Notes: generated by a model from the sequence alone, not told the origin. Counted from the stretch's first letter, positions 2,550 through 18,240 are shown. The stretch is 24,000 nt of DNA from Actimicrobium sp. CCI2.3 (GCF_034313845.1 NZ_JAVIWN010000003.1), one strand, 5' to 3'. Numbers and translations are program-made.

Positions 2550-2613
2550 TGTAGTGGTCTAATAAAATCGGACACCTCAATGGGAGCACACTCCCGCTAA
2601 CTGAGGAAATTAC

Positions 2614-2898
2614 ATGACTAAAAAACACTTCGACATCGAGCTTAAGCTGGAAGTCGTGCGCATGATCAAAGATCAAGGACTGAGCATTTCCAATGTCAGT
2701 AAAACCATGGATGTCGGACCGACCGCGATTCGTCGCTGGGTCACGCAACACGATGCGGAACTGCGTGGCGAGCCGGGCATCGGCAAGCCGCTGACGTCAG
2801 ACCAGCAGCGCATTCGTTCACTGGAACGCGAGAACCGGGAATTACGACTGGACGTGTCTATCCTAAAAAAGCATCGGCCTTCTTTGCCCGGGAACTGA
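2614..2898 (+). CDS. IS3-family OrfA, copy B (altered C-terminus from 1-nt deletion in the A-run)
   Basis: The 94-aa ORF is identical to copy A through ...DVSILKK. It then reads HRPSLPGN* instead of ASAFFARELK*, because block 2871-2880 reads tcctaaaaaa (6 A) whereas the copy A complement has 7. Confidence 0.85.
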   Translation: MTKKHFDIELKLEVVRMIKDQGLSISNVSKTMDVGPTAIRRWVTQHDAELRGEPGIGKPLTSDQQRIRSLERENRELRLDVSILKKHRPSLPGN

Positions 2899-2899
2899 A

Positions 2900-3778
2900 A
2901 TGAGCTACCAGCTCGTGACACAGTTACACAAGGAGGCCGTATCGACTGCCCGTAGTTGCCAGTTGCTGGCAGTCAGCCGTTCCGGGTATTACAACGCACA
3001 GTCCCGTCCTGCCAAACCGCTTTTTACGAAGGAAGCGGTCCACCTGAAGGCAGCCTTTGCCGCCAGCCGTCAAAGCTACGGTAGTCGGCGCCTAGTCAGC
3101 GCGGTGGCGCTGCAAGGCATTCGCATAGGTCGCTACAAAGCGCGTAGCCTGATGCGCCAGGCGGGCTTGAAGCCGGTGTGGAAGCGCAAGTTCATTCACA
3201 CCACCGACAGCAAGCATGACCTGGCGATTGCTCCCAACGTGCTCAACCGGAAGTTCAATCCGTCGGGGCCGAATATCGCGTGGGTGAGCGATATCACCTA
3301 CATCCGTACCGACACCGGTTGGCTATATCTGGCCACGGTACTGGATCTGTTCTCGCGTAAGCTGATCGGCTGGGCCACCGCGCCTGCTATGCCTGCTGCG
3401 CTGGTCTGCGAAGCGCTACGCATGGCCATTTCCAGTCGCAATCCGCCACCGGGATTGATCGTACATACGGACCGTGGAAGTCAGTACGCCAGCATCGAAT
3501 ATCAGGCCTTGCTGAAACGGTACGGTCTGGTGTCCAGCATGAGCCGTAAAGGTAACTGTTGGGACAACGCAGTTGCCGAACGCTTCTTCCTGAATCTGAA
3601 GATGGAATGCGTCTGGCGCACGCGATATGCCAACCAGGAAGAGGCCCGCAAGGACGTCACTTCCTACATCGTCGACTTTTATAATTGCACGCGTTTGCAC
3701 TCCGTATTGGGCAACCTGTCGCCCTCCGTCTTTGAACGGAAAATGGCAGAAATACTTCCATTGGGGTGTCCGAAATAA
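2900..3778 (+). CDS. IS3-family OrfB (DDE), copy B
   Basis: The 292-aa protein is identical to copy A OrfB. In this copy orfB lies in the +1 frame, not the -1 frame, relative to orfA. Confidence 0.85.
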   Translation: MSYQLVTQLHKEAVSTARSCQLLAVSRSGYYNAQSRPAKPLFTKEAVHLKAAFAASRQSYGSRRLVSAVALQGIRIGRYKARSLMRQAGLKPVWKRKFIHTTDSKHDLAIAPNVLNRKFNPSGPNIAWVSDITYIRTDTGWLYLATVLDLFSRKLIGWATAPAMPAALVCEALRMAISSRNPPPGLIVHTDRGSQYASIEYQALLKRYGLVSSMSRKGNCWDNAVAERFFLNLKMECVWRTRYANQEEARKDVTSYIVDFYNCTRLHSVLGNLSPSVFERKMAEILPLGCPK

Positions 3779-3791
3779 CTTGACCACTACA

Positions 3792-4068
3792 CGATGTGCA
3801 GGTTTGCCGACCACGGCAGTTCTCTCAACAGTGTTGAGAGTTTTGGCTTGCCGACGTATATCTCGAAAAATTGCTTCATGCGCCACAAGTTTTGCACGGA
3901 AAAGCCGCGCCAATCAGGTCTGCGATCTTGAATCAGCCTTGCCAGCGCCGCTACCGTTCCTTTACCCCAGCCCTCGCTCGTGCAGCGGTTCGACAAATGT
4001 TGTCCAATATCCCAATGCAAGCTGTTTATTTGTGATTGCTTGCATGGTGCATCAATTCCCGAACACAT
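3792..4068 (-). pseudogene. yhcG: yhcG/DUF1016 nuclease, N-terminal part (split from 1860-2549 by IS copy B)
   Basis: Translation reads ...INSLHWDIGQHLSNRCTSEGWGKGTVAALARLIQDRRPDWRGFSVQNLWRMKQFFEIYVGKPKLSTLLRELPWSANLHI. Removing the IS and one CGA copy joins it in frame to VSKCKSDEERLFY.... Only about 17 codons precede the conserved L(Y/H)WDIG block, so the 5' end is probably also truncated. Confidence 0.75.
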
Positions 4069-4339
4069 CCCCGATGTCGTCCGCCGTCAACTTGTAATCG
4101 TAGCTCCCGGACGGTGGTGTCGGGTTCGTACCGTCGTCGTCAGCGCGGACGACCGTCCCCTGACCTGATGCAACGTTGGCGTTCCCGTCTCGCGCGGCCT
4201 GCAGCAAATACACCAACCCGTACGTCGCCAATGTCATCAGCCGCGCAATCCTGCGCTGCCCTTTGTCATAGCGCGCCAGGTCCCGGGCCAGCGGCTCGTT
4301 GTCGTCGGCATGAAACCGGACCTGCATGCGGATCCACAT
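4052..4339 (-). CDS. Small ParR-like adaptor candidate, possibly ribbon-helix-helix, downstream of parM-like gene
   Basis: 95-aa ORF with SD GAGGA 7 nt upstream of ATG 4339. The N-terminus MWIRMQVRFHADDNEPLARDLARYDKGQRRIARLMTLATYG fits a beta-strand/helix/helix pattern. It sits 64 nt after the parM-like stop, the position of parR in parMRC loci. The C-terminal half is low-complexity and runs into the yhcG remnant. Confidence 0.5.
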   Translation of the reverse strand: MWIRMQVRFHADDNEPLARDLARYDKGQRRIARLMTLATYGLVYLLQAARDGNANVASGQGTVVRADDDGTNPTPPSGSYDYKLTADDIGDVFGN

Positions 4340-4403
4340 GACCTAGTCCTCAGGCATCGGTCAGCAGCTTTCCGTTCTTGCCGGACTGCCACGCCAGTCG
4401 CAT

Positions 4404-5384
4404 CTACTCGATCCCCGCTAGCTGAAACCCGATCACGTTCGCGTACAGCGTGTCTTTCAATGGTCGGATCGTGTGCCGAGGAAATGCTTCACGAATTACC
4501 GGTCCGAAGAAGAACGCTCCGCCACCACCAAGCAGGACGTTGTCGATGTCGTTGCCGTCCTGAACGACACGCTTGAGTTCGGTGACCGCGTCCCGGACGA
4601 TCTTGCGTGCTGCCGGCAGGTGCCGTTCCAGATCGTATTCCTTCTGGAACACGATTGGCGGCACGCCACCGCGCAGGGCCCGGTCGATGCGGTCGTAGTC
4701 GTTGAACAAGGTGTTTTCCGATTTGCTGATCGCGTCGGCGAAGGCGCGCAGCACGTCGTGCATGCCACGGTTGACGGCACCGCTGCGCTTGTCGACCGTT
4801 TTCAAACCCTGACCGACCAGCCAGTCGAAGGTGCGCGCGCCGACGTCGATGATCAGATGACGTTGCGCCTTGATGGCCGCAAAGTCGTCGGTGCCGCTCA
4901 GCGCGAAGTGCATCAGGGCACCATGCGGCTGGGCCAGCACGCGCACCTTTCGCACGGTGACCGTCCGACCGCCGCCGACGTCGTGCAGGCCGGACATTCG
5001 CTTTTCGAGGGATGTCTTGTGCAGCGCGAAGGTCGACACCGGTAAGCCCACGACCAGCAGGTCGATGGCCGGCTCGCGCATGAGGTGCAGGGCCCCGCGC
5101 GCTAGCGCCAGATACTCGGGAGACTGGATGTAATCGTCATCCATGTGGCGCGTGCCGGCAAGGTCGTCGGCCAGTGCGGCATCGGGGCCGACCTCGTAGG
5201 TCAGGTCGCCGATCGTGATTGCGACTGTCCTGCGCTGGCGGCCGAGTGCCGCCGCCAGGTCGCGGCCGCTCGTGACCGGTGCGATCGACGGGAAATGGGC
5301 GCAGCGCACGGGACCGCGCCCGGCGCTGACGACATATTTGGTGTTGCCATATCCGACATCGATTGCGCGTACGACTGGTTCCAT
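4404..5384 (-). CDS. parM: ParM/StbA-family actin-like segregation ATPase (326 aa)
   Basis: I place the start at ATG 5384 (SD GAGG 6 nt upstream), giving MEPVVRAIDVGYGNTKYVV... (actin-fold phosphate-1 motif). Further motifs are DVGARTFDW and LLGGGGAFFF. The 88 in-frame codons upstream (to 5648) look non-coding. Confidence 0.85.
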   Translation of the reverse strand: MEPVVRAIDVGYGNTKYVVSAGRGPVRCAHFPSIAPVTSGRDLAAALGRQRRTVAITIGDLTYEVGPDAALADDLAGTRHMDDDYIQSPEYLALARGALHLMREPAIDLLVVGLPVSTFALHKTSLEKRMSGLHDVGGGRTVTVRKVRVLAQPHGALMHFALSGTDDFAAIKAQRHLIIDVGARTFDWLVGQGLKTVDKRSGAVNRGMHDVLRAFADAISKSENTLFNDYDRIDRALRGGVPPIVFQKEYDLERHLPAARKIVRDAVTELKRVVQDGNDIDNVLLGGGGAFFFGPVIREAFPRHTIRPLKDTLYANVIGFQLAGIE

Positions 5385-5486
5385 AGTGACCTCAGACAGG
5401 ATTCGGGAACCAGCGTAGCGCTGCCCTTCATGAACGACCACGCGCAAAGCCCCTGTTGGCGCACCGCTTTCGGCAGCACGTCGTGT

Positions 5487-5586
5487 GAAAGTCGTCACCA
5501 CGATGGAGCCACGCACGACTTTCTGACGTCGGCCCCCTGATTGGCCGGTGCCATCTCCGCAAAAGTCGTGCGTGGTAACGACTTTC
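5487..5586. promoter_or_regulatory. parC-like centromere/operator: four copies of AAAGTCGT as two nested inverted pairs
   Basis: The outer pair is GAAAGTCGTCACC (5487-5499) and GGTAACGACTTTC (5574-5586), 12/13 complementary. The inner pair is CCACGCACGACTTT (5509-5522) and AAAGTCGTGCGTGG (5562-5575), 14/14 complementary. The block lies 100-200 bp upstream of the parM-like start, with a TTGACA -35-like hexamer on the minus strand at 5660-5665. Confidence 0.5.
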
Positions 5587-5718
5587 ATGCAAGCTGGTGG
5601 CGGGGCGTGTCGGGCCGACGGACACGGTTCGGAACTAGAGGTACCCACCGCCCCAACGCTGTCAAGGGCGCGCGAGCCGGTCTGAAATTATTGGACAATT
5701 ATTTGGTGCGATTTGTCC

Positions 5719-5747
5719 TTGATTTTCAAGTCCGGTTTGCCTATGCT
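5719..5747 (+). promoter_or_regulatory. Candidate sigma70 promoter firing rightwards into the long non-coding region upstream of the recombinase
   Basis: TTGATT (5719-5724), 17-nt spacer, TATGCT (5742-5747), in the only AT-rich patch of this intergenic region. Confidence 0.3.
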
Positions 5748-5801
5748 TTTTTCTGATGTGAGGAAGCCTGTTCCTCGGGGATCGTCCCCATTCAGGCCGT
5801 T

Positions 5802-5824
5802 GCAGTCGTTACCTGTCCCTTGTT
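5802..5824 (+). repeat. Conserved non-coding motif, copy 1 (GCAGTCGTTACCTGTCCCTTGTT)
   Basis: 21 of 23 aligned positions are identical to 8039-8060, in the same orientation. It is preceded by a short hairpin GGGGA-tcg-TCCCC (5777-5789) and followed by GCCGG-cttga-CCGGC. Confidence 0.6.
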
Positions 5825-6468
5825 CATGCCGGCTTGACCGGCCGCCGTTGTGTTATCCCTGATCGTTTCCCTGCTTGTCGATGGTCTGCCTGACCGCCGT
5901 CGATACCGTGTTCCGCCCGACGGACACTGAGGATGTGCGCCGGTCTGCTCGATGGACTCGCGTGCTGCGGCACTGGATGCCGCTTTGGTTCGACCATGTT
6001 TATTCCACTTGCAATGCATGACGCCGCTACTTGATGGCGACCGTACGATTGTCCCCTTGAGGGAGGCCGTGCCGGTGAGTCATGCCCCGTTCGTATCCGC
6101 CTCGCTACGGTGAGGGGCGGCGCCAGACGGCCGGGGCAAGTGTGAGGAGAAGCCGAATTTCGGACTCGGGAACAATCCCGGGTGCTGCACCTTTCTCCGA
6201 GGAAGGTGCGTCGCGTTCATCGCGACAGGTCAGATTGTCTCCAAGCGAGCGTCTGGTTTGGCAGCGCATTTTAACGATCCACACCGGCCGTGCAGGACCT
6301 GGCGGCGACAAATGACTGGCTCTGTTTTTACCGCGCGGGAAGTCGCGCGGGCTGCTTGCATGACTGATTTGTTTGGCGCACGAGTCCGGAATCCCTCGTC
6401 GTGCCTGGTCTGTCGGGATTCCATATATCCGCTCGCGCGCATCTCGCGGGCCCGAACTGGAGCGCATC

Positions 6469-7554
6469 ATGCGAGCCAAAAAATATTTGCCACGCGAACG
6501 TCAGGGCAGGGCCGCTGCACCTGCCTATCATCCTGCACTACCAGACCAGACGCCATGGGCTGCCGTGCTGATGACGATCATCCGTCGGCACAACTGGTCT
6601 CACGCCGTGCGCGATAAGGGGGTGTCGCACAAGACCATGGCGGTGCGGCAGACATTCTTGTTCGCGTTCTTCCGGGAGCTGCGATTGAATGGCGAGGTGC
6701 CGTATCGCGTCGATCCGCGCCGGCTTGGCAACCGGCATATCCGGTTCATGGTGCAGCGCTGGCTAGATCGAGAGTTGTCGCCGGCGACGCTGCAGCAATA
6801 CCTCAGTTTCCTGCGTACTTATGCAGGCTGGATTGGCAAGCCGCAACTGGTCATGCCGGTCGAGCGGTACATCAATGATCCGAAACGCACGCGTCGTCGC
6901 TATTGCGCCGAGGTCGATAAAAGCTGGTCTGCGCGCGGGATCGATGCTGAGCAGATATTTACTGCGATGGCGGCGATCGACCGGTACGCCGCCGCACAAC
7001 TGGCGGTGAAATCGGCGTTCGGATTGCGCCGCAAGGAAGCGGTCATGCTGCAACCGCAACGGCGAGTTGTCACGGCGCGGCAGGCGGGTATCGCGGAGGA
7101 CGATGACGCGCTGTATCTCGATCTGCTCAAGGGGACGAAAGGTGGCCGTCAGCGTTATCTGCCGATCGACAGTGACGACAAGCGGCGCGCGCTACAACGT
7201 GCCTGCGAATTGGTGCGCAGTCTCGAAGACCATCTGGGCAATCCGGCACGTACGCTGAAACAGAACTTGCGGCGGATCGATTACGTGATGGCAAAGCTGG
7301 GACTCACGCAGAGCGAGCTGGGCGTCACTGGGCACGGCTTGCGGCACGATTTCGCCAATGATTTATATGAGAAAGAATCCGGTGCGACTGCACCCCTGCG
7401 TGGCGGAGCTGTGGTTGATTCGGCTACCGATCAGGCTGCGCGACTAGCGGTCGCAAGACAGCTCGGTCATGGTCGAATCCAGATCGCCGGAGCCTATCTT
7501 GGTGGACGAAAACGGATTGGTGCCAAAGGTTCGCCGTCCGGGTCGAACGAGTGA
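6469..7554 (+). CDS. Tyrosine recombinase / integrase-family protein (361 aa)
   Basis: The start is placed at ATG 6469 (GGAG 6 nt upstream). The N-terminal SAM-like region is ...KTMAVRQTFLFAFFRELRL...SPATLQQYLSFLRTYAGW. Catalytic-domain motifs are FGLRRKEAV (Arg), GHGLRHDFAN (H-x-x-R) and LGHGRIQIAGAYLG (His plus nucleophile Tyr). Confidence 0.85.
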   Translation: MRAKKYLPRERQGRAAAPAYHPALPDQTPWAAVLMTIIRRHNWSHAVRDKGVSHKTMAVRQTFLFAFFRELRLNGEVPYRVDPRRLGNRHIRFMVQRWLDRELSPATLQQYLSFLRTYAGWIGKPQLVMPVERYINDPKRTRRRYCAEVDKSWSARGIDAEQIFTAMAAIDRYAAAQLAVKSAFGLRRKEAVMLQPQRRVVTARQAGIAEDDDALYLDLLKGTKGGRQRYLPIDSDDKRRALQRACELVRSLEDHLGNPARTLKQNLRRIDYVMAKLGLTQSELGVTGHGLRHDFANDLYEKESGATAPLRGGAVVDSATDQAARLAVARQLGHGRIQIAGAYLGGRKRIGAKGSPSGSNE

Positions 7555-7578
7555 GAGCGCACGCAACGATGTCCTGAC

Positions 7579-7866
7579 TCAGTAGCCGGGACGGTAGTCC
7601 TGTCCTTGGTCGTAGCGGCTTTGCCAGTGATGCAGATAGGTCGCTGCGAGGGTAGGATTATTCCAGAGGGCGAGGACTTTTTTGGAATTACGGTTCGCTG
7701 CGGCGCTGTAGTTGAACGAGCCGGTTTGCACGTACCGGCCAGCGACGATGATCACCTTGTCGTGGTGGATCGCATAGGTAGCGATGGTATGCGTCGGGAT
7801 GCCGGCGGATTTATCAAGTCTACGAAAGGCTAGTCGCTCATGCTTTCCGGTCCTGTCTGCCTTCCT
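7579..7866 (-). pseudogene. nuc: PLD-family endonuclease Nuc, 5'-truncated fragment (C-terminal 95 codons)
   Basis: It is absent from the ORF track because it has no start codon. Minus-strand translation is RKADRTGKHERLAFRRLDKSAGIPTHTIATYAIHHDKVIIVAGRYVQTGSFNYSAAANRNSKKVLALWNNPTLAATYLHHWQSRYDQGQDYRPGY*. It has the HxK...GSxN signature and the ...HWQxRxxQGxDYRxxY tail recalled from plasmid Nuc proteins. TAA lies in frame just upstream (7867-7869), and the signal peptide and N-terminal half are missing. Confidence 0.75.
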
Positions 7867-7920
7867 TTAACTGGGAACAAACTCCCTGCGAAATCATGGT
7901 CGTACGTGTCGTTTTTCTCC

Positions 7921-7949
7921 TTGAATTCGGCCGTGTCACCTGCAATACT
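7921..7949 (+). promoter_or_regulatory. Candidate sigma70 promoter for the non-coding region upstream of ORF 8344
   Basis: TTGAAT (7921-7926), 17-nt spacer, AATACT (7944-7949). Confidence 0.3.
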
Positions 7950-8038
7950 GAAATTGCTTTCGTGGGTATCGCACTCACACAGCCTTCATTACGGCGCAAC
8001 ATTCGGCCGTGCTTGAAGTCCGGTCCTGCACCGGCGTC

Positions 8039-8060
8039 GCAGACGTTACCTGCCCTTGTT
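8039..8060 (+). repeat. Conserved non-coding motif, copy 2 (GCAGACGTTACCTGCCCTTGTT)
   Basis: It matches 5802-5824 with one substitution and one 1-nt indel. It is preceded by hairpin CCGGT-cctgc-ACCGG (8020-8034) and followed by ACCGG-ttgcggagtaat-CCGGT. Confidence 0.6.
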
Positions 8061-8230
8061 GTGACCGGTTGCGGAGTAATCCGGTTTCCGGTTTGTCGCC
8101 GCAGTTGTTGGTGGTGACTTGATCAGCGTTCCTCCCGGGCGCGGTCGAGATGTAAGCGCTATCTCGGCTGACATCTCATGTGGTCGTGCGGTGATGGTGC
8201 TTTGCGCACCGACCGTATGTCTACCGAGCA

Positions 8231-8270
8231 GGCTCTCCGTTCTCCGGAACCGAGAGCCTTTTTGTTGTTC
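8231..8270 (+). terminator. Rho-independent terminator-like hairpin
   Basis: GGCTCTC-c-GTTC / tccg / GAAC-c-GAGAGCC gives 11 paired positions with one C/C mismatch and a tetraloop (8231-8258). It is followed directly by TTTTTGTTGTTCTTT. Confidence 0.6.
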
Positions 8271-8343
8271 TTTCCATCCTGCGGGGACCATCCGTTTCCC
8301 TGTGGGGGAAGTGGCGTCCCCATTTTTATGTATTGGAGCTGCC

Positions 8344-8814
8344 ATGTCGAATCACTATTCACCATCCCGTCCAACTGCATCGGTGACGGACGCCGAAGAA
8401 CGTGCCTGGATCAGCTTTTATGATCACATTGATGACGCGTCTGTTGCGGCGGAATTGCTCAGCTATATCGAAGCGGATCCGGAACTCAAGCGCACCCGGT
8501 CGGGTTTGTATCTGTGTGCGAGGCAGTCCGTCAGACGTGCCAATGCCCGGTATGCGCGGGCATTGCGTGTCGGTCAGTCTGTACGGGCCGTGATCGATGT
8601 GACGGTGTTTGCGCCGGTCATTCTGACCCGAAGGCTGTTGCGAGTGTTGGTGTTTTATGCAGTGGAGATGCTTCCCCAACTGCGTTGGCATCAAGCGGCG
8701 GAAAGTCAGCTGCCAAAGGCAGTGGAAAAGAAGACGGATTTCCCGGCGGTACTGCCGCGGTCCGTCTTTGAACGGAAAATGGCAGAAATACTTCCATTGG
8801 GGTGTCCGAAATAA
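8344..8814 (+). CDS. Hypothetical protein, 3' end replaced by IS-derived sequence (chimeric ORF)
   Basis: ATG 8344 has GGAG 7 nt upstream. Translation is MSNHYSPSRPTASVTDAEERAWISFYDHIDDASVAAELLSYIEADPELKRTRSGLYLCARQ.... The last 18 codons (RSVFERKMAEILPLGCPK*) are the tail of IS OrfB read from the solo IS end. I recognise no family. Confidence 0.45.
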   Translation: MSNHYSPSRPTASVTDAEERAWISFYDHIDDASVAAELLSYIEADPELKRTRSGLYLCARQSVRRANARYARALRVGQSVRAVIDVTVFAPVILTRRLLRVLVFYAVEMLPQLRWHQAAESQLPKAVEKKTDFPAVLPRSVFERKMAEILPLGCPK

Positions 8815-8827
8815 CTTGACCACTACA
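8761..8827 (+). mobile_element. Solo right-end remnant (67 bp) of the same IS3-family element
   Basis: 8761-8827 is identical to the last 67 nt of copy B (3725-3791), including the terminal repeat ...GGGGTGTCCGAAATAACTTGACCACTACA. The rest of the IS is absent. Confidence 0.9.
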
Positions 8828-8927
8828 GTTGCTCGGGCGAGTTCACGGGTTTCGGTGCAATGCCGGAATGGCCGTGGATCGCCCGGTTTTTTTGATTCGC
8901 CCGGTTTGTCTATCCTGGTCTTGCAGC

Positions 8928-11360
8928 TCAGCCAGCCACCATCCGATCCAGATCAATCACCGCATCAGCCATCGCCGTCAGTTCCGGCGTCTGCGATACA
9001 AAAAATTCCTGCGCATACCCGCCCAAGCGCAGCACCTCGCGCTTCATCGCCATGAACATCCGCTTGCGCTCGGGGTCGAGTGGTCCGTCGGCTTCGTCGG
9101 AGAACAGCGTGCTGTACTGCCGTCCGGCATCCTGCGCCAGATACAGTGCTATGGCGCGTATCAGGCACTCGTTGATGAAAACCCGTTCGCCACCGCTCAT
9201 CTGGGTCAGGCTCTTGCTGTCATCCGACTCACCGTCATGGACGACGATATCGAAACCTTCGCGCAGGTCTCCTTTGCCGGTTTCAACGAGGGTTCTGATC
9301 GAGACCGTGAAGCGCGGTCCGTAGCAGGCAAGCAGGAGATCGTTGGCCAGTCCGGATAGCTGCGGTCCTGCGTCATCGATGGCCAGGGCGATCACGCCGT
9401 CATGGGACAAACATTTGGTGAGCAGGAGCCAGGTGCCTAGCGCCTGTTCGATTGCCGCGATGGCTGTGCTTGCAGCAGTAATGCGCGTAGCCAGTTCGTC
9501 GAGTCGGTTGTCACAGGCGGTGGCTGCCTGCTGGTCGCGAATGGCATTCAGGTAGACGGCGTCGGTGGCGGCAAGGGTTCGTTGTGCTGCCTCGATCGTG
9601 TGCTGCCCAGCGACCAAACTGGATGTGTCGAACGGCGGTGGAAGGGCGCTCAATAAGGTATCGATTCGCCGCATTGAAGTTTGCTGGCGCTGCTGCTCCT
9701 GTTCGCGTCTGCTGGAGATTTCGGTACGTGCGGCGGCAATCGCAAGTCGTTCTGCGCGGTCTTCTTCGGTGTCGCCAACTCCCGCTTGCGGCAGCGCATC
9801 CCGTTCCGCTTCGATGCGTTGCAGTTCTTGCCGGGCGTGTGCGACCTCACCATGACGGGCAGCGAAGACAACGAGTGCGGCGCTGCGCTGGCGGGACCGG
9901 GACAGCTGCTGTTCCGCCCGCTCAAGCATTGGTCGTGGATCAGGTGAACGGGCTAGTGCCGCATTCGTGACGGCGATCTTTTCCAGAACCGCCGTGCGTT
10001 CTTGATGCAGGCGCGCGAGCTGCATTTCCGCAGACGGCTTCATCGTCTGCGCAGTGCGGGCATCACCAAGCAATTCGCAGCGACCCTGCAGTTCGTTCCC
10101 CGCACACGGAACCTGCGACGTTAGCCCGAAACGCCTGGTCAGTTCCTGCATCCGCAGTGCCGCCTGTCCGGCTTCGCGTTCGATGGTGTGCAGTTGCAGT
10201 TGATGCTCTTTGGCGCTCGTGCAAAGCGTCTCGTACTGCATCATGTCGTCGCGCAGTCGGGTGAGCCGTTGCTCTCTGATGGACGTGATGTTGTTGGCGA
10301 GCGGAAGGTGGGGCACGGCACGCGAAATGGTCGACGCTTGCCGCAGTAGCTGCCGGTATTGCGTACATCGCCGGTCGAGTTGCGTTCGTGCCGACTGCAG
10401 CGACGCCGTCTGCCGGGCGACCCGGCGTTCGACGGTTGAAAGCCGCTCGGCTTCGCGCCTGTCCTGCGCATCAAGTGCTGACAGTGCGCACTGTGCGTCG
10501 GCGGTCAGGACGGCGCGCTCGTCATCCAATTGCTTGCGGAGCGATGCTGTCTGATGGGCGAGTTGCTGTTCCGTGACCAGTGTTGCCAGTGCTGACTTGG
10601 CGGCCTCCAGAGTGGTGTGCGCCAACTGCCGTTCCTGTTCTGCAGCGGTCGTTTGCGTCTGCACGTCGCCCAGTCGTAGGCGTGCATCGCGGTGACCGGA
10701 CTCCTCGCGCTGCAGATCCGCAAGTGCTTGCCGCCGTGTCTCCAGTCCCGTACGCAGCAGTTTCGCGGTGGTGGCAGCGTGCCCGCCGAGTGTGCTGATG
10801 GCGTCAAGCCCGAGCAAGTCTGCCAGCAGGGCTTTGATGTCGGCATTCCGGTAAGCCGACAATGGCCGTCGGCCCTGCGCCGAAAAGACCGACGTAAAAA
10901 ACGTTTCCGGACTGCCGAGCAAGACATCCACGCAGCGCGCATAGGTCTCCACCTTCCCATCCGAGACAGTGCCATCGTCCAGCGCGACCGGCTCCCACCG
11001 TCCCGCATGATCGACATGCAGATAGGCCTCGGTTCTCTTGCGGCCATTCACCCGAAAAATCAGTTGCGAACGATAGCGCCGGCCGGCATGTTCCCAAGTC
11101 AGTGTCTTGGCGCTTTCGGGAAGATAAATGTGGTCGTAATACGAGAAGCTTCCGAGACCATCGGCACCGGCCCGCGAAGGCATCACTGGATACGGCGTTG
11201 CGTTGTCGATGATGGTTGTCTTGCCGCGACCGTTCATGCCTGTGATGGCGACGAGGCGGGCATCGCCGGCCAGTTGTTCGAAGTCGAGCGTGATGCTGTC
11301 GCGCCCGAGCCCGTCGCGAATGCCTTTAAATCCCTTCAGGTGCAATGACAGTGGTTTCAT
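8928..11360 (-). CDS. SbcC/Rad50-like SMC-type coiled-coil ATPase (810 aa), third gene of operon
   Basis: SD AAGGAGA lies 7 nt upstream of ATG 11360. Walker A is GMNGRGKTT (aa 41-49, nt 11214-11240) and the Q-loop is FSAQG (aa ~159-163). A central region of about 450 aa is rich in Q/R/E/A/L, consistent with a coiled coil. The ABC signature is MSGGE (aa 721-725) and Walker B/D-loop is TLFSDEADGPLD (aa 751-762). Confidence 0.9.
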   Translation of the reverse strand: MKPLSLHLKGFKGIRDGLGRDSITLDFEQLAGDARLVAITGMNGRGKTTIIDNATPYPVMPSRAGADGLGSFSYYDHIYLPESAKTLTWEHAGRRYRSQLIFRVNGRKRTEAYLHVDHAGRWEPVALDDGTVSDGKVETYARCVDVLLGSPETFFTSVFSAQGRRPLSAYRNADIKALLADLLGLDAISTLGGHAATTAKLLRTGLETRRQALADLQREESGHRDARLRLGDVQTQTTAAEQERQLAHTTLEAAKSALATLVTEQQLAHQTASLRKQLDDERAVLTADAQCALSALDAQDRREAERLSTVERRVARQTASLQSARTQLDRRCTQYRQLLRQASTISRAVPHLPLANNITSIREQRLTRLRDDMMQYETLCTSAKEHQLQLHTIEREAGQAALRMQELTRRFGLTSQVPCAGNELQGRCELLGDARTAQTMKPSAEMQLARLHQERTAVLEKIAVTNAALARSPDPRPMLERAEQQLSRSRQRSAALVVFAARHGEVAHARQELQRIEAERDALPQAGVGDTEEDRAERLAIAAARTEISSRREQEQQRQQTSMRRIDTLLSALPPPFDTSSLVAGQHTIEAAQRTLAATDAVYLNAIRDQQAATACDNRLDELATRITAASTAIAAIEQALGTWLLLTKCLSHDGVIALAIDDAGPQLSGLANDLLLACYGPRFTVSIRTLVETGKGDLREGFDIVVHDGESDDSKSLTQMSGGERVFINECLIRAIALYLAQDAGRQYSTLFSDEADGPLDPERKRMFMAMKREVLRLGGYAQEFFVSQTPELTAMADAVIDLDRMVAG

Positions 11361-11384
11361 TTTGGTTCTCCTTAATCCTATGCC

Positions 11385-12629
11385 TCAGCATCTGCTGATC
11401 GCTGGATTCGTCAACGGGTTGTCCTGCCCGAGAATGTGCATGGCGATCTCTTCGGGCGTCCCGCATTGCAGCGCCTGCAGGCATGCTTGCAGCGGTTCGG
11501 CGTGGACTTGCGTCACTTCAGCCCAAGCATTGACTTTGGCTACGAGACCAGCGGCTCGCGCGATACCGGCCGCGCGGGTGCGGACCACCGGGAGCAGACG
11601 TCCTTCGAACTTGACCTCGGCGGCGTCACGCAACAATCGCCGGATAGCCGTGCGATCGACCTGATGCCGGTCTTCCTCCGGGACCTGCCAGCGCAAGCGA
11701 ATGAAGGTATCGGCAACATCATCCCTCTTGGCGATGAGCGCCAGTTCGGCCATGTCCGGAAGTCCATCGAAGGTGATGTCGATGGTGCGGCGGGCCGGTG
11801 TGGCGTTCAATGTACAGTCGCTGCTGGCGGCATCGATGTGCCAGAGCAGAAATCCCTTGATACCGTGTTCGCCGTAATGGAAGCGGCCGATTGATCCGGC
11901 GTAGGCGATGCACCGTCCGTCCTGTTTCCACTGCTGATGCTGGTGGATGTGCCCGAGCAAAAAGGCGCTGGCACCGGCTGCGAACAGCGAGCCGGTAGTG
12001 AATTCGTGATCCGGTCCCGCCATTGGCACACCGTGTTCGGTCACACAACCGTTGACGGTGCCGTGCGACACGCCGATGGTTGGGATACCCCGGCGGCGTG
12101 CGTCGTCATTTAATGAGGCAAATCCGCGCAGCACTCGAGCGAGGTGTTCGCCGGTTGCATTCGCTGCCTCGCAGGCACCGACTGTCGCTGCGACCTGCGC
12201 CTTGTTGACGGTCGGTACGCACGAGAACAGCGCCTCGGTACCGTCGGGCAGCGCATCGAAGCGCCAGGAGGGTGCGGCCTGCCAGCGTCCGCCAATCAGC
12301 GCCACCTGACCGATGCGGTCGGCGACGAAGACCGGATACCGTCCACCGAGCAGCCGGAAAATATCCAGCGTTCCGGGCGGCTCATGACTGAAGGTGCCTT
12401 GCAGCATGAGTACCGGACAGTGGTCGGCCAGTCGCCGGAGTTGGGTCGCCAGCGCGACGAAAGCGGGCGCGTGGACATCGAGTGCGTGATCGGTGGCATC
12501 GCCGGACACGACGGCACAATCGACCCCGTACTGGATCGCTGCATCAATGGCAAAGCCGAAACAGCGATCGGCTTCGATCAAGTTTTTGCTGGCGTAATGG
12601 AGGTCGGAGAAGTGGGCAAGCCGGATCAT
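11385..12629 (-). CDS. SbcD/Mre11-like calcineurin-type metallophosphoesterase (414 aa), second gene of operon
   Basis: The ATG overlaps the upstream stop (ATGA at 12626-12629), with GGAGGA just upstream. Motifs are I FSDLH (aa 7-11), II GDATDH (43-48), III-like GTFSHE (78-83), IV GVSHG and V LGHIHQH. Confidence 0.9.
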   Translation of the reverse strand: MIRLAHFSDLHYASKNLIEADRCFGFAIDAAIQYGVDCAVVSGDATDHALDVHAPAFVALATQLRRLADHCPVLMLQGTFSHEPPGTLDIFRLLGGRYPVFVADRIGQVALIGGRWQAAPSWRFDALPDGTEALFSCVPTVNKAQVAATVGACEAANATGEHLARVLRGFASLNDDARRRGIPTIGVSHGTVNGCVTEHGVPMAGPDHEFTTGSLFAAGASAFLLGHIHQHQQWKQDGRCIAYAGSIGRFHYGEHGIKGFLLWHIDAASSDCTLNATPARRTIDITFDGLPDMAELALIAKRDDVADTFIRLRWQVPEEDRHQVDRTAIRRLLRDAAEVKFEGRLLPVVRTRAAGIARAAGLVAKVNAWAEVTQVHAEPLQACLQALQCGTPEEIAMHILGQDNPLTNPAISRC

Positions 12630-13918
12630 GATTCCTCCGCCAGGCGGGCATCCGCAGTCGGCGCGATGGTGTGGGCAATCTGGTCGATCAGCGAGCCGGG
12701 TTCGAGTTCAAAGTTGCGCAATTCGTTGAGCGCACGACGGCGACCCTGCGGATTACGCTTCCAGCCAGCACCCCAGCGTTTGTTGGCATACTGCTCGTAG
12801 CGTTCGGCATCGATACCGATCTGTTCGGCGAAGGCGATGATGTCGTCGGTGGTGATCGTGTCCTGTGCAGGACGCGCTGCCGGCGTTTCCTGTTCTGGTT
12901 CCGGCGGTGCTTCAGCGACCAACTGGGCATCGCCTTTGCCTTCAAGGATCTCGGCCGAACGGGCTGCATCCGCGATAGCCAAGGTGTCGTCGTCGTTATG
13001 CAGCAGCGCAGTCACATCACACGGCGCCTCGATCGCAATGAGCCATTGGGCAACGCGCACGGGTCGGCCATCGTCGTCGATGCGAGTGATGTCGGTGAGT
13101 TTCTTGGTGAAATAGAACGGCGTGCGCTTGTCGTCGAGGAAGCCGGAAATACGCCCACCACGCAGGAATGCCATGGTCTGAAAGGTCTGCATCGCGGCGT
13201 TCATTGCATAAAAACTGTTCGTCGGCAGCTCGAACGCATCGGTCGACGGGATGCCCGGCACGAAGAAGACGAAGCGGCCGGACAGGTTGCATTGCCGGTG
13301 CTGGTATTCCGGGCAGTGTTCTGGATCGCAAATACCGCCGTTGTCGGCGCGCGGGATCGCCTTGCGTCCGCCGAAAATGCGGATGACGCGCTTGCTGTCG
13401 GGATCTCTGGGCACTGGTGCATACGTCATGCAGTGCCGAACCTGCCCATCGGGCGAGTACTGCGACCAGTAGCGCCGATCGTTCGCGCCCCACGCAACAA
13501 GTCCGTGCGGCATCACGGTGTGCCAGTCATCAGACGGAAAAATGGCAGGAAAGCGATACAAACGCCGGATGCCGTCGCCCCGGTCTTCGCCGAATGCGTA
13601 GAGCAGTTGTGCGGCCGTGGCAGGATTGGGAAAGTCCCCTGGTCGCACCGTGAAATAAGGCACGTTCCTCGGTACCAGAGGGATCGTCAGATTGGGAACT
13701 GCCTGAGTGATGTCGCGCGCGATATCGTCGAACGAGCGGTTGGTTTGCACACCATGTTCATACAACGATTTGGCGCGCGGATTGGCGGCAGCATTCTTGG
13801 TGAGGACCTTGATGCCGGCGCGGATTTTGCCGGCGGTGCGCAGGGCGGCGGTGCGTTGCCCGAGCAGGGATGGAGGCTGATTATTCGCGCCGCTGACCGT
13901 AATGTTGGGGGTTGCCAT
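12626..13918 (-). CDS. Uncharacterised 430-aa protein with Cys/His cluster, acidic/Pro linker and small basic C-terminal domain; first gene of operon
   Basis: SD AGGAG lies 6 nt upstream of ATG 13918 and the stop is coupled to the next gene. Amino-acid composition is protein-like, unlike the antisense 445-aa ORF. The cluster is C163...C197-DPEH-C202-PEYQHRQ-C210. I recognise no catalytic motif. Confidence 0.8.
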   Translation of the reverse strand: MATPNITVSGANNQPPSLLGQRTAALRTAGKIRAGIKVLTKNAAANPRAKSLYEHGVQTNRSFDDIARDITQAVPNLTIPLVPRNVPYFTVRPGDFPNPATAAQLLYAFGEDRGDGIRRLYRFPAIFPSDDWHTVMPHGLVAWGANDRRYWSQYSPDGQVRHCMTYAPVPRDPDSKRVIRIFGGRKAIPRADNGGICDPEHCPEYQHRQCNLSGRFVFFVPGIPSTDAFELPTNSFYAMNAAMQTFQTMAFLRGGRISGFLDDKRTPFYFTKKLTDITRIDDDGRPVRVAQWLIAIEAPCDVTALLHNDDDTLAIADAARSAEILEGKGDAQLVAEAPPEPEQETPAARPAQDTITTDDIIAFAEQIGIDAERYEQYANKRWGAGWKRNPQGRRRALNELRNFELEPGSLIDQIAHTIAPTADARLAEES

Positions 13919-14115
13919 GGTTGGCTCCTGTGGGGTGGGTGTGGTTACAGGATGCCTGGGGAGGCGAGTTGTTCAAGTGGGCCGGTAGGTTCCATAGCGG
14001 TGATGTAATCGGGACGTACTGCTGACTTCAGATTTGACCCACCACAAAACACACTCCACCCAGCGAAAAGGTGTAATACACTTGTGCTACATTCACCGTT
14101 CATCAGGAGTGAAGC

Positions 14116-14400
14116 ATGTCCACGACGACGATACGATTAACTGAAGAACTGAAATTGCGGGTTGCCAGCGCAGCTGATCGCTCCGGTTCGACGGCGCACA
14201 GTTTTATTCTGCAAGCGATTGCCGAGAAGATTGAGAAGGAGGAATTGCGCAGTACCTTTGATGAAGCCGCTGAGGAACGCTACGCCAACGTGATCGCGTC
14301 AGGTAACACCATATCGTGGACTGACATGCGCTGCTACCTGGAAGAGCGTGTTGCAGGCAGGAAGCCTTCGCGCCCGGTGGCCGGGAAACTGGTCCGATAG
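14116..14400 (+). CDS. Ribbon-helix-helix (CopG/ParD-like) antitoxin
   Basis: SD AGGAG is present upstream. The N-terminus TTIRLTEELKLRVASAADRSGSTAHSFILQAIAEKIE is a classic RHH strand-helix-helix. Its stop lies 2 nt before the toxin start. Confidence 0.8.
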   Translation: MSTTTIRLTEELKLRVASAADRSGSTAHSFILQAIAEKIEKEELRSTFDEAAEERYANVIASGNTISWTDMRCYLEERVAGRKPSRPVAGKLVR

Positions 14401-14402
14401 TC

Positions 14403-14696
14403 ATGTCGCGTATAGAACTGGCACCAGAGGTGGCCGATGACCTAGATCGGATCTTCGATCATCTTTGCGCCCATGAAGTCGAACACGTATCTGAGCGCAT
14501 CGGCGAGATCATCCAGGCCATTGCCGTGCTGGAGTCCAATCCGTTTATCGGACGACCGGCCGAAAACGGAAAACGGGAACTCGTGATCGGACGGTGCACA
14601 CGCGGATACTTGGCTTTGTATCGGTATGTCGTCGAGATCGATACGGTGTTTGTGCTAGCCATCAGAGGGCAGCGAGAGGCCGGTTATAGCGGGTAG
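14403..14696 (+). CDS. RelE/ParE-superfamily type II toxin
   Basis: 97 aa: MSRIELAPEVADDLDRIFDHL...NPFIGRPAENGKRELVIGRCTRGYLALYRYVVEIDTVFVLAIRGQREAGY. This is the ParE/RelE-family fold pattern, tightly coupled to the RHH gene. Confidence 0.8.
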   Translation: MSRIELAPEVADDLDRIFDHLCAHEVEHVSERIGEIIQAIAVLESNPFIGRPAENGKRELVIGRCTRGYLALYRYVVEIDTVFVLAIRGQREAGYSG

Positions 14697-15666: not shown

Positions 15667-17058
15667 TCAGCGGTAGCTTTGCTGAGAGTGAGCCTCCGCA
15701 GTAGCGTCATTCTTATTCGATTTGGTTGCGTCGCCAGGCTTTGCACCATGGATCGGTTGGCGTTCGGCGCTACGCCTCGAAGTGGGCGACATCTTCTCCT
15801 TGTTGTTCACCGCGACAGGATTCGAAGGATGTGGTGGCGGTGGATTTTTTGCGGCGGGTGGCTTTGGTCGATCGGGTGCAGGCTGTGCGGCGAAAAGTTG
15901 TGGCGACGTGACTGGCTTGCCTGATCCAGGCACTGGGAGAGGATTTGACGACGATTGAGGTTGTGCCATCGAGACAGGTCTCGTATCACCGTATTCGTGT
16001 GAGGCTTTATTATCTGGTGTCAGCGGATGGGGTAGGGCAGCAACTGGTGCGGCTGCTTTGTTGGGCACGACAGGCTGAACGGATGCTGCTGCATGCTCTT
16101 GAGTTGGTGGGTGTTGGTGGACCTGTGCCATTTCCGCATGAACTATTTGTGGTGGTGGCAACGCAGCCGGCGGGTGCCCTGCGACATACGACGGAATTGC
16201 CTTTGCAGAGATTGGTTCGGGGGCCGCAACCCTGACCACCGGCGGCAGCGATGCGGCTAGATGTGCCTGTGCTGGAACGGAAGAATTCACCGCTTGTCCG
16301 CTTGCGGTGGCACTTGCCGGCGCGACGATGGTGACGTTTGTCACGTTTCTGATGTTCGTCACATTGTTCGTGACATTGTTATTGCTGATGGCATTGTTGG
16401 TGACCGAATTATTGTTGTAAGTATTGTTGCTATTGCTGTTGACGTGAATCCGCATCCCTTCATTCACCACTGGCGGCGCGCTGACGACGACCGCAGGTGC
16501 GGTGCCGATCGGCGCCGGAATAATCAATCCCAAACGTGACCCCGGTGGTGCCGGTACAAACACACCCTCTGGTCCGACAGGTCGAAGACCGACCGCCACA
16601 CCCACGGTTACTTGAGCAATAGCGATATTGATATTGGGTGCCGGTGGGACGAATGACACGCCTGGTGCGGCCCAAAATCCATTCACGAACACCACCGAAC
16701 CGTCACGGTTTTCATAATAGGGATTCACCCATCCGTAACCCGGTTGTGGCGGCGCGGCCCAGCGACCGTGTGCCCATACCCAGTTACCCTGCCAGACCCA
16801 GTAGCCGCCCGTCCAGATCGCATCTGGATAGGGCCGATAGGGCACTGTTTCCACCAGCATTGGCGGTGGTGCCCACTGCACGCGAACCGGGGGCGGCTGA
16901 TAAATCGGCGGTTCGACATAGACGCTCACGACCGGTTGTGGTGCCGGTGCCAGATAGACTACCTCTGCGGGTGGACGTACATAAACCCGGGGTGGATAAA
17001 CTGGCGTCGCTGCGCAGCCAGTCAGCAACACAGCGATGGCGAATGAAAGTTTTTTCAC
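15667..17058 (-). CDS. Lipoprotein with WxxGxW-type repeats, Asn-rich insert and Pro-rich tail (463 aa)
   Basis: GTG start with AGGA upstream. The signal peptide plus lipobox is MKKLSFAIAVLLTG|C. Aromatic repeats are GGYWVWQGNWVWAHGRWAAPP...GYGWVNPYY. An N-rich block spans aa 207-242 and the C-terminal half is Pro/Ala/Gln-rich. Confidence 0.8.
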   Translation of the reverse strand: MKKLSFAIAVLLTGCAATPVYPPRVYVRPPAEVVYLAPAPQPVVSVYVEPPIYQPPPVRVQWAPPPMLVETVPYRPYPDAIWTGGYWVWQGNWVWAHGRWAAPPQPGYGWVNPYYENRDGSVVFVNGFWAAPGVSFVPPAPNINIAIAQVTVGVAVGLRPVGPEGVFVPAPPGSRLGLIIPAPIGTAPAVVVSAPPVVNEGMRIHVNSNSNNTYNNNSVTNNAISNNNVTNNVTNIRNVTNVTIVAPASATASGQAVNSSVPAQAHLAASLPPVVRVAAPEPISAKAIPSYVAGHPPAALPPPQIVHAEMAQVHQHPPTQEHAAASVQPVVPNKAAAPVAALPHPLTPDNKASHEYGDTRPVSMAQPQSSSNPLPVPGSGKPVTSPQLFAAQPAPDRPKPPAAKNPPPPHPSNPVAVNNKEKMSPTSRRSAERQPIHGAKPGDATKSNKNDATAEAHSQQSYR

Positions 17059-17386: not shown

Positions 17387-17568
17387 AGCTGTGTTAAACG
17401 GCATGCTGGCCGCCGCACGCCCAAACTCCGTTCGCAGTCAAAAAATGGCCGCATAATCGGGCAGGGGTTGGGGGACTGTCGCCGTCGACTTTAAAGTGCA
17501 CCAACCGCCAATAGACGTCGGTATGATGCGGATGCCAGCTTTTCAAGCTACTCAATTCAGGAACCGTC

Positions 17569-18240
17569 ATGTCGTTGTATCGCAATCCTGTTGCGCGCCA
17601 GATTCGGGCACGCCCACGTATCTTTATTGCAGCCATGATTGCGCTGATCGTTGGGGCTGCATTGCCCGTGTCGGTTGCTTCCCACCTTGCTACGCGGTTG
17701 TTGATCACTTGGAATACAGGAACTTGTCTGTACGTCGTCCTAGCCGCAGTAATGATGGTCCGATCTTCGCAACGAACCATGTACCGGCGCGCCCTGTTGC
17801 AGGATGACGGCCAGCGCATATTGCTTTTTCTGGTGGTCGTCACGAGCGTGGCCAGTTTGGTGGCCATTGCAATGGAGCTGGCAGTGGTCAAGGACATGCA
17901 TGGGCTCATCAAGAGTGCGCACATTGCGCTCGCCGGCATGACGGTACTGTCGTCGTGGGCGTTCATCCAGGTGATGTTTTCGTTGCATTACGCGCACGAT
18001 TACTATTTAGCACGCCATCGTAATGAGCCGTGTGGTCTACAGTTTCCGGAAGAAGAGCAACCAGGGTATGGCGATTTCTTTTATTTCGCCGCAGTCATCG
18101 GGACTTCCGGTCAAACTGCTGATGTCTCATTCACATCCAAATCGATGCGCCGTATTGGCGCAGTGCACTGCATTCTGGCTTATCTCTTTAACACGGTGGT
18201 GCTGGCGCTATTAATCAATATCGGGGCAAGTCTGTTTTGA
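17569..18240 (+). CDS. DUF1345-family integral membrane protein
   Basis: SD AGGAA is present upstream. It has multiple hydrophobic segments and the conserved C-terminal block GLQFPEEEQPGYGDFFYFAAVIGTSGQTADVSFTSKSMRRIGAVHCILAYLFNTVVLALLINI. Confidence 0.8.
   Translation: MSLYRNPVARQIRARPRIFIAAMIALIVGAALPVSVASHLATRLLITWNTGTCLYVVLAAVMMVRSSQRTMYRRALLQDDGQRILLFLVVVTSVASLVAIAMELAVVKDMHGLIKSAHIALAGMTVLSSWAFIQVMFSLHYAHDYYLARHRNEPCGLQFPEEEQPGYGDFFYFAAVIGTSGQTADVSFTSKSMRRIGAVHCILAYLFNTVVLALLINIGASLF

Follow-up and report, generated by a model that had tools for sequence, protein, structure and literature searches.

A 24,000-nt stretch of Actimicrobium sp. CCI2.3 (GCF_034313845.1, NZ_JAVIWN010000003.1), referred to here as the window, contains at positions 8928-13918 three adjacent minus-strand genes that encode a Gp3-like protein, an Mre11/SbcD-like metallophosphoesterase and a Rad50/SbcC-like ATP-binding cassette (ABC) ATPase. 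We refer to them as genes 1, 2 and 3 respectively, and together as the trio. The features of the locus, with coordinates counted from the first letter of the window, are as follows.

12626-13918, minus strand: gene 1, 430-aa Gp3-like protein
11385-12629, minus strand: gene 2, 414-aa Mre11/SbcD-like metallophosphoesterase
8928-11360, minus strand: gene 3, 810-aa Rad50/SbcC-like ABC ATPase with a head-coil-head layout
12626-12629, minus strand: ATGA overlap of the gene 1 stop and the gene 2 start, preceded by GGAGGA (read from the sequence)
11361-11384, minus strand: 24-nt spacer between genes 2 and 3, containing AAGGAG (read from the sequence)
13919-14115, no strand: intergenic region between gene 1 and a divergent ribbon-helix-helix (RHH)/ParE module, presumed promoter region of the operon

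Gene 1 starts with the ATG at 13918, just behind an AGGAG, and its junction with gene 2 reads ...GGAGGAATCATGA... around the ATGA. An earlier reading of the window by a model, made without database searches (the original prediction), had described three same-strand open reading frames (ORFs) with their own Shine-Dalgarno sequences, the ATGA overlap and the 24-nt gap, and all of these can be read in the sequence. It had further called the genes almost certainly one expression unit. The spacing fits this, but a consensus scan of the trio, including 13919-14115, found no sigma-70-like promoter and no terminator above chance, so it is from the spacing that we infer a single transcription unit. All three ORFs are full length relative to their homologs, with their start signals and the ATGA coupling kept, and they are not chance ORFs, because their order and adjacency are conserved and their catalytic residues are invariant across the aligned homologs. 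Searches at the DNA level returned nothing from E. coli genomes or from phages, and plasmids gave only a 146-nt match.

The product of gene 1, which the original prediction could not assign, is a member of Pfam family PF18897 (Gp3-like, recombination directionality factor (RDF)-like) by both the Pfam threshold and its fold. It scores 108.1 bits against a cut-off of 23.6 (E=6.9e-31, residues 30-260), and phiC31 gp3 scores 64.4 bits with the same model. An AlphaFold2 model built on an alignment of 135 sequences, which spans three subfamilies including the pMOL28-type and the pPNAP01-type, reached a predicted local distance difference test (pLDDT) score of 86.5 and a predicted template modeling (TM) score (pTM) of 0.68; an earlier model based on 18 close homologs (pLDDT 52) was discarded. 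The top PDB match of the model in Foldseek is 9teh_I (E=4.1e-6, probability 1.00, TM 0.56 on the target), a phiC31 integrase-RDF(gp3) fusion in the excisive synapse. The next PDB matches are weak and consist of the oligonucleotide/oligosaccharide-binding (OB) folds of single-stranded DNA (ssDNA)-binding proteins (SSBs), Cdc13 and MCM, while the viral structure library BFVD returned a phage RDF and weak SSBs. When gene 1 was compared directly with phiC31 gp3 by profile and hidden Markov model (HMM), the similarity was not significant; the kinship is therefore remote, and it is the Pfam model and the fold that carry it.

The gene 1 protein consists of an N-terminal core of ~330 aa, a variable acidic and proline-rich linker (~329-352), and a conserved C-terminal domain (~355-430). 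Four cysteines (C163, C197, C202, and C210) are invariant in the 135 homologs, and the model suggests that the N-terminal ~330 aa form a zinc/OB-type ssDNA-binding core. The C-terminal domain is confidently helical in the model, and no relative of it was found in PDB. Phage gp3 has no such domain: gene 1 encodes 430 aa compared to 244 aa in phiC31 gp3/TG1 gp25, with the linker and the C-terminal domain as extra parts, and no serine integrase is encoded nearby. The phage branch of the family has been studied biochemically. TG1 gp25, which belongs to the phiC31 gp3 family, binds ssDNA and not double-stranded DNA in vitro, has an OB fold and a predicted zinc site similar to T4 gp32, and the RDF activity in this family has been viewed as moonlighting by an SSB (PMC11795197). 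A separate observation concerns a group of plasmid matches in Paraburkholderia, Caballeronia, and Burkholderia (H28-H41), in which the alignment to gene 1 spans residues ~5-334 only, over two annotated ORFs; this partial coverage suggests that the C-terminal helical domain has split off, been replaced or diverged in that lineage.

Gene 2 carries the calcineurin-type motifs FSDLH (position 7), GDATDH (43), VSHG (187), and GHIH (226), which had been named in the original prediction, and in addition a fifth motif, TFSHE, at position 79. The corresponding motif residues are D9-x-H11, G43-D44, S81-H82, H189, and H227-x-H229, and the metal ligands D9, H11, D44, H82, H189, H227, and H229 are invariant in 22 homologs. 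As a single sequence, gene 2 falls below the curated cut-offs (18.9 bits against 77.65 for TIGR00619 sbcD, 13.8 against 21.5 for Pfam Metallophos, and 15.8 against 27, with a value of 0.015, for Metallophos_2), and its match to Pyrococcus furiosus Mre11 is weak (1.4e-3). The family profile (A3, 22 sequences) reaches T. maritima Mre11/SbcD at 2e-12, P. furiosus Mre11 at 1e-9, and E. coli SbcD at 5e-6. Judged from these profiles and residues, gene 2 is a remote but genuine relative of Mre11/SbcD with conserved catalytic residues. We also considered gene 2 as a specific relative of gp47, the RDF of phage Bxb1, in which case the two big types of RDF would meet in one operon. BLASTP found no match between the two, and the tie thus shrinks to a common calcineurin-like superfamily.

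Gene 3 has the Walker A motif GMNGRGKTT at position 41, the Q-loop FSAQG at 159, the signature MSGGE at 721, and the Walker B motif LFSDEAD at 752. These motifs and the coil-like center agree with what the original prediction had read: the middle of the protein (residues 186-640, 455 aa) is composed to 60% of A/L/E/Q/R/K, vs. 39-42% in the two head regions. The invariant residues are Walker A K47, Q162, signature S722-G-G, Walker B D755-E756, and the D-loop D758, and at the midpoint of the coil an invariant P418-C419-x8-C428-L-L is found (residues 418-431). Gene 3 matches the SbcC-like phrog_77 at E=2.9e-29, with every score under the cut-off for Pfam SMC_N, AAA_23, and SbcC_Walker_B; its family profile (A4) reaches archaeal Rad50 at 5e-15 and E. 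coli SbcC at 9e-6. By these profile matches gene 3 is a remote but genuine Rad50/SbcC relative with conserved catalytic residues. Compared to SbcCD and Mre11-Rad50, genes 2 and 3 keep the di-metal site, Walker A and B, the Q-loop, the signature, the D-loop, the long central coil, and the order of nuclease followed by ATPase. They differ in scoring under every curated threshold, in having S-H in motif III and no CxxC hook, in a coupled upstream SSB-like gene, in their carriage by mobile elements, and in a shorter ATPase (810 aa vs. 1048 aa in E. coli SbcC), the last as the original prediction had stated.

Homologs of gene 1 number more than 1,300 in a word-indexed search, and form 941 clusters at 50% identity in a full HMM search. 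In a sample of 80 loci from representative genomes, mostly of Burkholderiales and Rhodocyclales, genes 1 and 2 are adjacent in every locus in which both were found (78/78), gene 3 follows gene 2 in 64, and the order and adjacency are kept at 45-70% identity. Plasmid records give a similar picture, with gene 1 in 77 and gene 2 in 73 of them, at adjacent coordinates and with nearly the same breakdown by genus. The carriers include pMOL28, pHG1, and the symbiotic plasmids of C. taiwanensis; one common backbone has been described for pMOL28, pHG1, and pRALTA (PMC2864759). Among the 2.9 million contigs of IMG/VR, only eight contain a relative of gene 1, and all eight have the full trio, with a CI-like repressor, DNA methylases, primase, helicase, and integrase among its neighbors.

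The neighbors of the trio in other carriers are similarly those of an element backbone. In pMOL28 its place is downstream of an entire PRTRC cluster together with an orphan N6-methylase and DUF932. In a Piscinibacter plasmid, a DUF1173/integrase-like pair and DinG are found on one side, and a JAB/RadC gene, an antirestriction gene, an N6-methylase, and PRTRC on the other. Polaromonas pPNAP01, which like pMOL28 is typed MOBH, has its three genes scattered among ssb, primase, helicase, DnaN, a ParE module, and a MOBH relaxase (the ORF that immediately precedes gene 2 in this plasmid is not a homolog of gene 1). In chromosomal loci a P4-type integrase and AlpA are encoded a few kb from the trio, and cargo and RadC come after it. 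The trio is thus co-located with PRTRC and other backbone genes in pMOL28 and the Piscinibacter plasmid, and the same holds for gene 1 only in Janthinobacterium lividum plasmid p356839. We conclude that the trio is a fixed backbone component of divergent Burkholderiales plasmids and integrative elements and not variable cargo. It is widespread, real, and intact. We found no description of the trio in the literature on PF18897/Gp3-like proteins, PRTRC, or a backbone exonuclease of pMOL28.

The original prediction had also considered a home of the trio in phage genomes. This is not what we found: in 50,697 phage records, genes 1 and 2 had no tblastn match, and gene 3 matched only Leptospira LE1 and a Moorella phage. 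In the phage-plasmid LE1 (L098, 2079-6528), the genes gp76, gp75, and gp74 are translationally coupled with 4-nt overlaps, next to ParB, helicase, and methylase genes. The nuclease/ATPase pair of LE1 belongs to the gene 2/gene 3 subfamily (HMM 1.7e-14 and 5e-63, respectively), and the C-x8-C apex and the S-Q-T of gene 3 are conserved as far as this phage.

The junction between genes 2 and 3, which is 24 nt in the window, is an insertion hotspot for defense cargo in relatives, a feature noticed here for the first time. Inserts of 0.5-8.5 kb are present at this position in 19 of 64 homologous loci, and in five further loci more than 8.7 kb follow gene 2 with no gene 3 in reach; the set includes L006, L010, L017, L019, L027, L032, L034, L035, L047, L048, L060, and L071. 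Known defense genes are carried by eight inserts, seven of them seen directly and L017 by its identical gap size. The systems are as follows.

L035 and L071: Gabija (GajA 1e-282, GajB 2e-235)
L010: GmrSD
L034 and L060: McrBC-like pairs
L019, L006, and probably L017 (from its identical gap size): AbiH
L032: PDC-S06, nSTAND3, and RES

In Sphaerotilus (L083), gene 2 is followed by a mer operon and RND efflux genes. For several inserts PADLOC gave no match, and these may contain systems that are still unknown.

Our favored proposal, which we hold with about even confidence, is that the trio is an element-encoded DNA-end resection and repair module that acts on the DNA of the element itself. This corresponds to the plasmid- or phage-like recombination/replication module that the original prediction had kept as its fallback, and it is the reading that the evidence favors. 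An end-processing module is preferred because an ssDNA binder, an Mre11-type nuclease, and a Rad50-type ATPase make up the parts list of end resection; repair of the element's own DNA is preferred because the trio is found in a backbone context with establishment and maintenance genes, and because a precedent exists in the ssb-bet-exo operon of MOBH elements. We propose that the module family belongs to betaproteobacterial conjugative plasmids and integrative elements, including the pMOL28/pHG1-type, MOBH, and PRTRC-carrying ones.

In the mechanism we envision, the products of genes 2 and 3 would form an Mre11/Rad50-type complex, in which the heads and coiled coils of gene 3 may recognize and tether DNA ends or hairpins, and the di-metal phosphoesterase of gene 2 would then cut and resect. 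The gene 1 protein, as a predicted gp32-like zinc/OB binder, would coat the exposed ssDNA, possibly as the third member of the complex, and its extra C-terminal domain may recruit or stimulate the nuclease. The outcome would be repair or recombination of element DNA after breakage, whether this arises from replication, conjugative entry, or cleavage by host restriction or CRISPR, and the element may gain a counter-defense benefit.

In phage T4, the SSB gp32 works with gp46 and gp47. Similar to the predicted activities of the trio, the T4 proteins combine a zinc OB ssDNA binder, an Mre11-type phosphoesterase, and a Rad50-type coiled-coil ATPase, and similar to the role proposed for the trio, they are encoded by a mobile genome and serve its own DNA-end resection and recombination. 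A link between the Gp3 family and gp32 has been made previously (PMC11795197). Despite this likeness, there is no detectable sequence similarity of the trio proteins to the T4 proteins, the trio is one coupled unit on plasmids and ICEs (integrative and conjugative elements) whereas T4 is a lytic phage, and the trio has an extra C-terminal helical domain in gene 1 as well as a C-x8-C apex and S-Q-T in its ATPase.

The hde ssb-bet-exo genes of IncC and SXT/R391 elements act in the recipient, where they mend double-strand breaks, including CRISPR-made ones, in the element once it has entered and thereby evade CRISPR and restriction, and this repair was linked by the authors to hotspots for variable DNA (PMC7498323). 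Like the trio, they form a backbone operon that joins an SSB and an exonuclease on MOBH elements, the type to which the trio carriers pMOL28 and pPNAP01 also belong. The components are different: a PF00436 SSB, RecT, and YqaJ in hde, compared to Gp3-like, Mre11-like, and Rad50-like proteins in the trio, which lacks an annealing protein. The trio has no Pfam match to a PF00436 SSB, a RecT-type annealase, or a YqaJ exonuclease, and the likeness is one of function and context. By analogy, the trio may work like T4 gp32/46/47 and hde ssb-bet-exo while being a member of neither.

Several observations weigh against the end-resection proposal, or against parts of it. With respect to biochemistry, motif III of gene 2 is S81-H82 where Mre11 has N-H; gene 3 has no CxxC zinc hook, with the C-x8-C apex in its place; and no H-loop histidine follows the D-loop in gene 3, where V-S-Q-T (Q789) is found instead, with S789 and P792 but no histidine conserved in the alignment of this area (788-791). 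The biochemistry may therefore differ from that of canonical Mre11-Rad50. With respect to the partnership of gene 1 with genes 2 and 3, p356839 (L089, 10738-22098) has gene 1 without the other two: the homolog, at 44% identity, spans the full length together with its C-terminal domain, points away from a regulator of the AcaB family, and is followed by RadC, a restriction endonuclease, an integrase-domain gene, and PRTRC protein D, so that gene 1, the integrase-like gene, and PRTRC D are ordered as in the window. In LE1 the first gene of the coupled operon (317 aa) has no similarity to the Gp3-like family, and in pPNAP01 the gene 1 counterpart, a remote homolog, is ~10 kb upstream of genes 2 and 3. 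As these three cases break the trio, the partnership is not obligatory. Finally, the defense systems between genes 2 and 3 in relatives argue, by defense-island logic, for an immune role.

Such a role was the claim of the original prediction, which saw in the trio a candidate undescribed DNA-end-sensing immune system. In an immune or competition system, the ATPase would sense incoming ends or hairpins, the nuclease would destroy the DNA, and the SSB-like protein would serve as a sensor or licensing factor; we consider this unlikely. The combination of an SMC-like ATPase, a nuclease, and a third subunit does resemble Lamassu and Wadjet, and the trio shares with Lamassu, Wadjet, and MADS a coiled-coil ABC ATPase, a nuclease, and a third protein on mobile DNA. 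However, the nuclease of the trio is of the Mre11 type and its third protein has an SSB-type fold. Gene 3 has weak PADLOC matches to mad3 (3e-10) and LmuB (1e-5), but these cover generic ABC/SMC head regions only, and genes 1 and 2 match no model in PADLOC-DB v2, including the PDC and HEC candidates (E<=0.01). Bona fide defense systems lie directly between genes 2 and 3 in relatives, and the trio is carried by mobile elements beside toxin-antitoxin modules. This is guilt by association for immunity, but a cargo hotspot between core genes, as in SXT/R391, would leave the same signature, and the trio is invariant while the inserts vary, as expected of core genes that flank such a hotspot. In addition, the trio co-diverges with element lineages (35-65% identity), and the gene 1 family has a demonstrated SSB and replication role (PMC11795197). 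A categorically new immune system is not supported by this evidence; the trio is a fixed backbone gene set.

A broader version combines both functions: the trio may be a three-component nucleic-acid surveillance machine, in which the gp32-like SSB reports ssDNA or ends and licenses a C-x8-C Mre11/Rad50-type nuclease that either attacks competing incoming DNA, as immunity or plasmid exclusion, or rescues the element's own from nucleases of the host, with the gene 2/gene 3 junction as a landing pad for defense cargo. This, too, seems improbable to us.

In Actimicrobium sp. CCI2.3 the trio is surrounded by a block, the features of which are as follows.

14116-14696, plus strand: addiction module of a DUF6290 RHH-type antitoxin (PF19807, 3e-6) and a ParE toxin (PF05016, 4.8e-10), divergent from the trio and intact
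8119-8814 (likely true start 8344), plus strand: conserved hypothetical gene, convergent with gene 3, its 3' end running into the IS3 remnant
8752-8829, no strand: 78-nt terminal remnant of the IS3 insertion sequence (IS) family, 96% identical to the ends of the full copies (repeat search), just downstream of gene 3
6373-7554, plus strand: tyrosine-recombinase-like gene (Pfam Integrase_1/Phage_int_SAM_2)
4404-5648, minus strand: PRTRC system protein D, actin-like (TIGR03739, E=8.3e-108, 360 bits against a cut-off of 214.8)
571-1814 and 2549-3791: two full IS3-family copies, 100% identical and inverted, flanking a 734-bp YhcG (PDDEXK) gene fragment

The IS scar, the tyrosine-recombinase-like ORF, and the RHH/ParE module had been recognized in the original prediction and are confirmed here, as is a block richer in GC than the chromosomal-looking right side (0.58-0.645 over ~4000-14000, vs. 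0.50-0.58 to the right). The predicted parMRC cassette did not hold up, the supposed ParM being PRTRC system protein D. As a lone PRTRC gene, it indicates that the block is the remnant of a PRTRC-type plasmid or ICE backbone. The 6373-7554 gene matches the integrase-domain gene of p356839 in relative position. The conserved hypothetical gene belongs to no Pfam, NCBIfam, or PADLOC family, and in 15 loci a homolog of it lies downstream of gene 3 on the opposite strand. The block lacks the genes for RadC, DUF5983, and antirestriction that usually come after gene 3, the 24 kb contain no relaxase and no type IV secretion system of the element's own, and a scan for a tRNA that could mark an island boundary found none. 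The window is thus a degraded copy of such an element, with the trio intact inside.

This decay underlies another explanation, that the trio in this strain is a functionless relic that has just not yet degraded. The two full IS3 copies, the IS3 end scar beside gene 3, which truncates the conserved hypothetical gene (8344-8814) at its 3' end, the lone PRTRC D gene with a second PRTRC-D-like fragment, a PLD/Nuc-like fragment, and the loss of the genes normally found after gene 3 would all fit a relic. However, none of the three ORFs is shortened relative to its homologs, their start signals and ATGA coupling persist along with all of the invariant catalytic residues, and the adjoining ParE module is also intact, so that we find a relic rather unlikely.

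Some smaller features of the window may be recorded here. Repeats of 89 nt (81% identity) and 30 nt (87%) connect 284-575 with 4289-4560; they represent a second, diverged copy of the 3' end of PRTRC protein D and its downstream flank at the left edge, truncated by IS3 at 571. A 58-aa ORF (7579-7755, minus strand) ends ...GSFNYSAAANRNSKKVLALW..., which resembles the C-terminal HKD-motif region of a phospholipase-D-family (Nuc-like) endonuclease, and we take it to be a gene fragment. Between the ParE module and the chromosomal-looking genes are two minus-strand ORFs of 463 aa (15667-17058) and 190 aa (17394-17966), neither of which has a Pfam, NCBIfam, or PADLOC match or a homolog in 81 related loci; the latter overlaps a DUF1345 gene encoded on the opposite strand and is possibly no real gene. 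Of a UmuC/Y-family polymerase, the plus-strand ORF at 23029-23643 has just the C-terminal domains (IMS_C and DUF4113) and not the catalytic N-terminal part, and is truncated or frameshifted.

The homologs of gene 1 are named "recombination directionality factor" in NCBI and UniRef, and together with the Pfam Gp3-like membership and the gp3 fold of the phiC31 excisive synapse, this name would suggest that gene 1 is the RDF of a large serine integrase and controls excision as phiC31 gp3 does, with genes 2 and 3 as unrelated passengers. Yet a Pfam scan of 23 window ORFs turned up no serine recombinase, nor did the neighbors examined in related loci include one, and the recombinases in the window and related islands are of the tyrosine type; as no serine integrase accompanies gene 1, an RDF role is unlikely. 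Many carriers are non-integrating plasmids, the RDF activity of the phage family is itself seen as SSB moonlighting (PMC11795197), and the coupling of gene 1 to a nuclease gene in 78/78 loci would be left unexplained. Taken together, we regard this explanation as very improbable.

That the trio is the housekeeping SbcCD of the host, a break and hairpin nuclease, is scarcely credible, although its nuclease-then-ATPase order is that of E. coli sbcDC and its family profiles reach E. coli SbcD and SbcC, as the scores fall far short of the cut-offs curated for SbcD and Rad50, plasmids and integrase-bounded islands hold the closest relatives, the block is GC-atypical among IS and plasmid genes, and the ATPase has 810 aa instead of 1048; a horizontally acquired accessory module distinct from the host sbcCD, as the original prediction had it, agrees with this.

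Megaplasmids and ICEs of environmental importance conserve the genes of the trio, among them pMOL28, pHG1, and plasmids of the pRALTA type and of Burkholderia/Paraburkholderia. If the trio does repair the DNA of its element, Mre11-Rad50 chemistry would be a second break-repair route to the evasion of host defense, unrelated to ssb-bet-exo. The junction of genes 2 and 3, as a recurrent site for defense systems and resistance genes, could be used as a marker for mining new cargo in Burkholderiales elements. Further, the phiC31-type RDF family has a large non-phage branch, the 941 clusters described above, in which the protein is hard-wired to a nuclease operon with no serine integrase nearby, and this branch agrees with a published view of RDFs as replication and repair proteins that have been scavenged.

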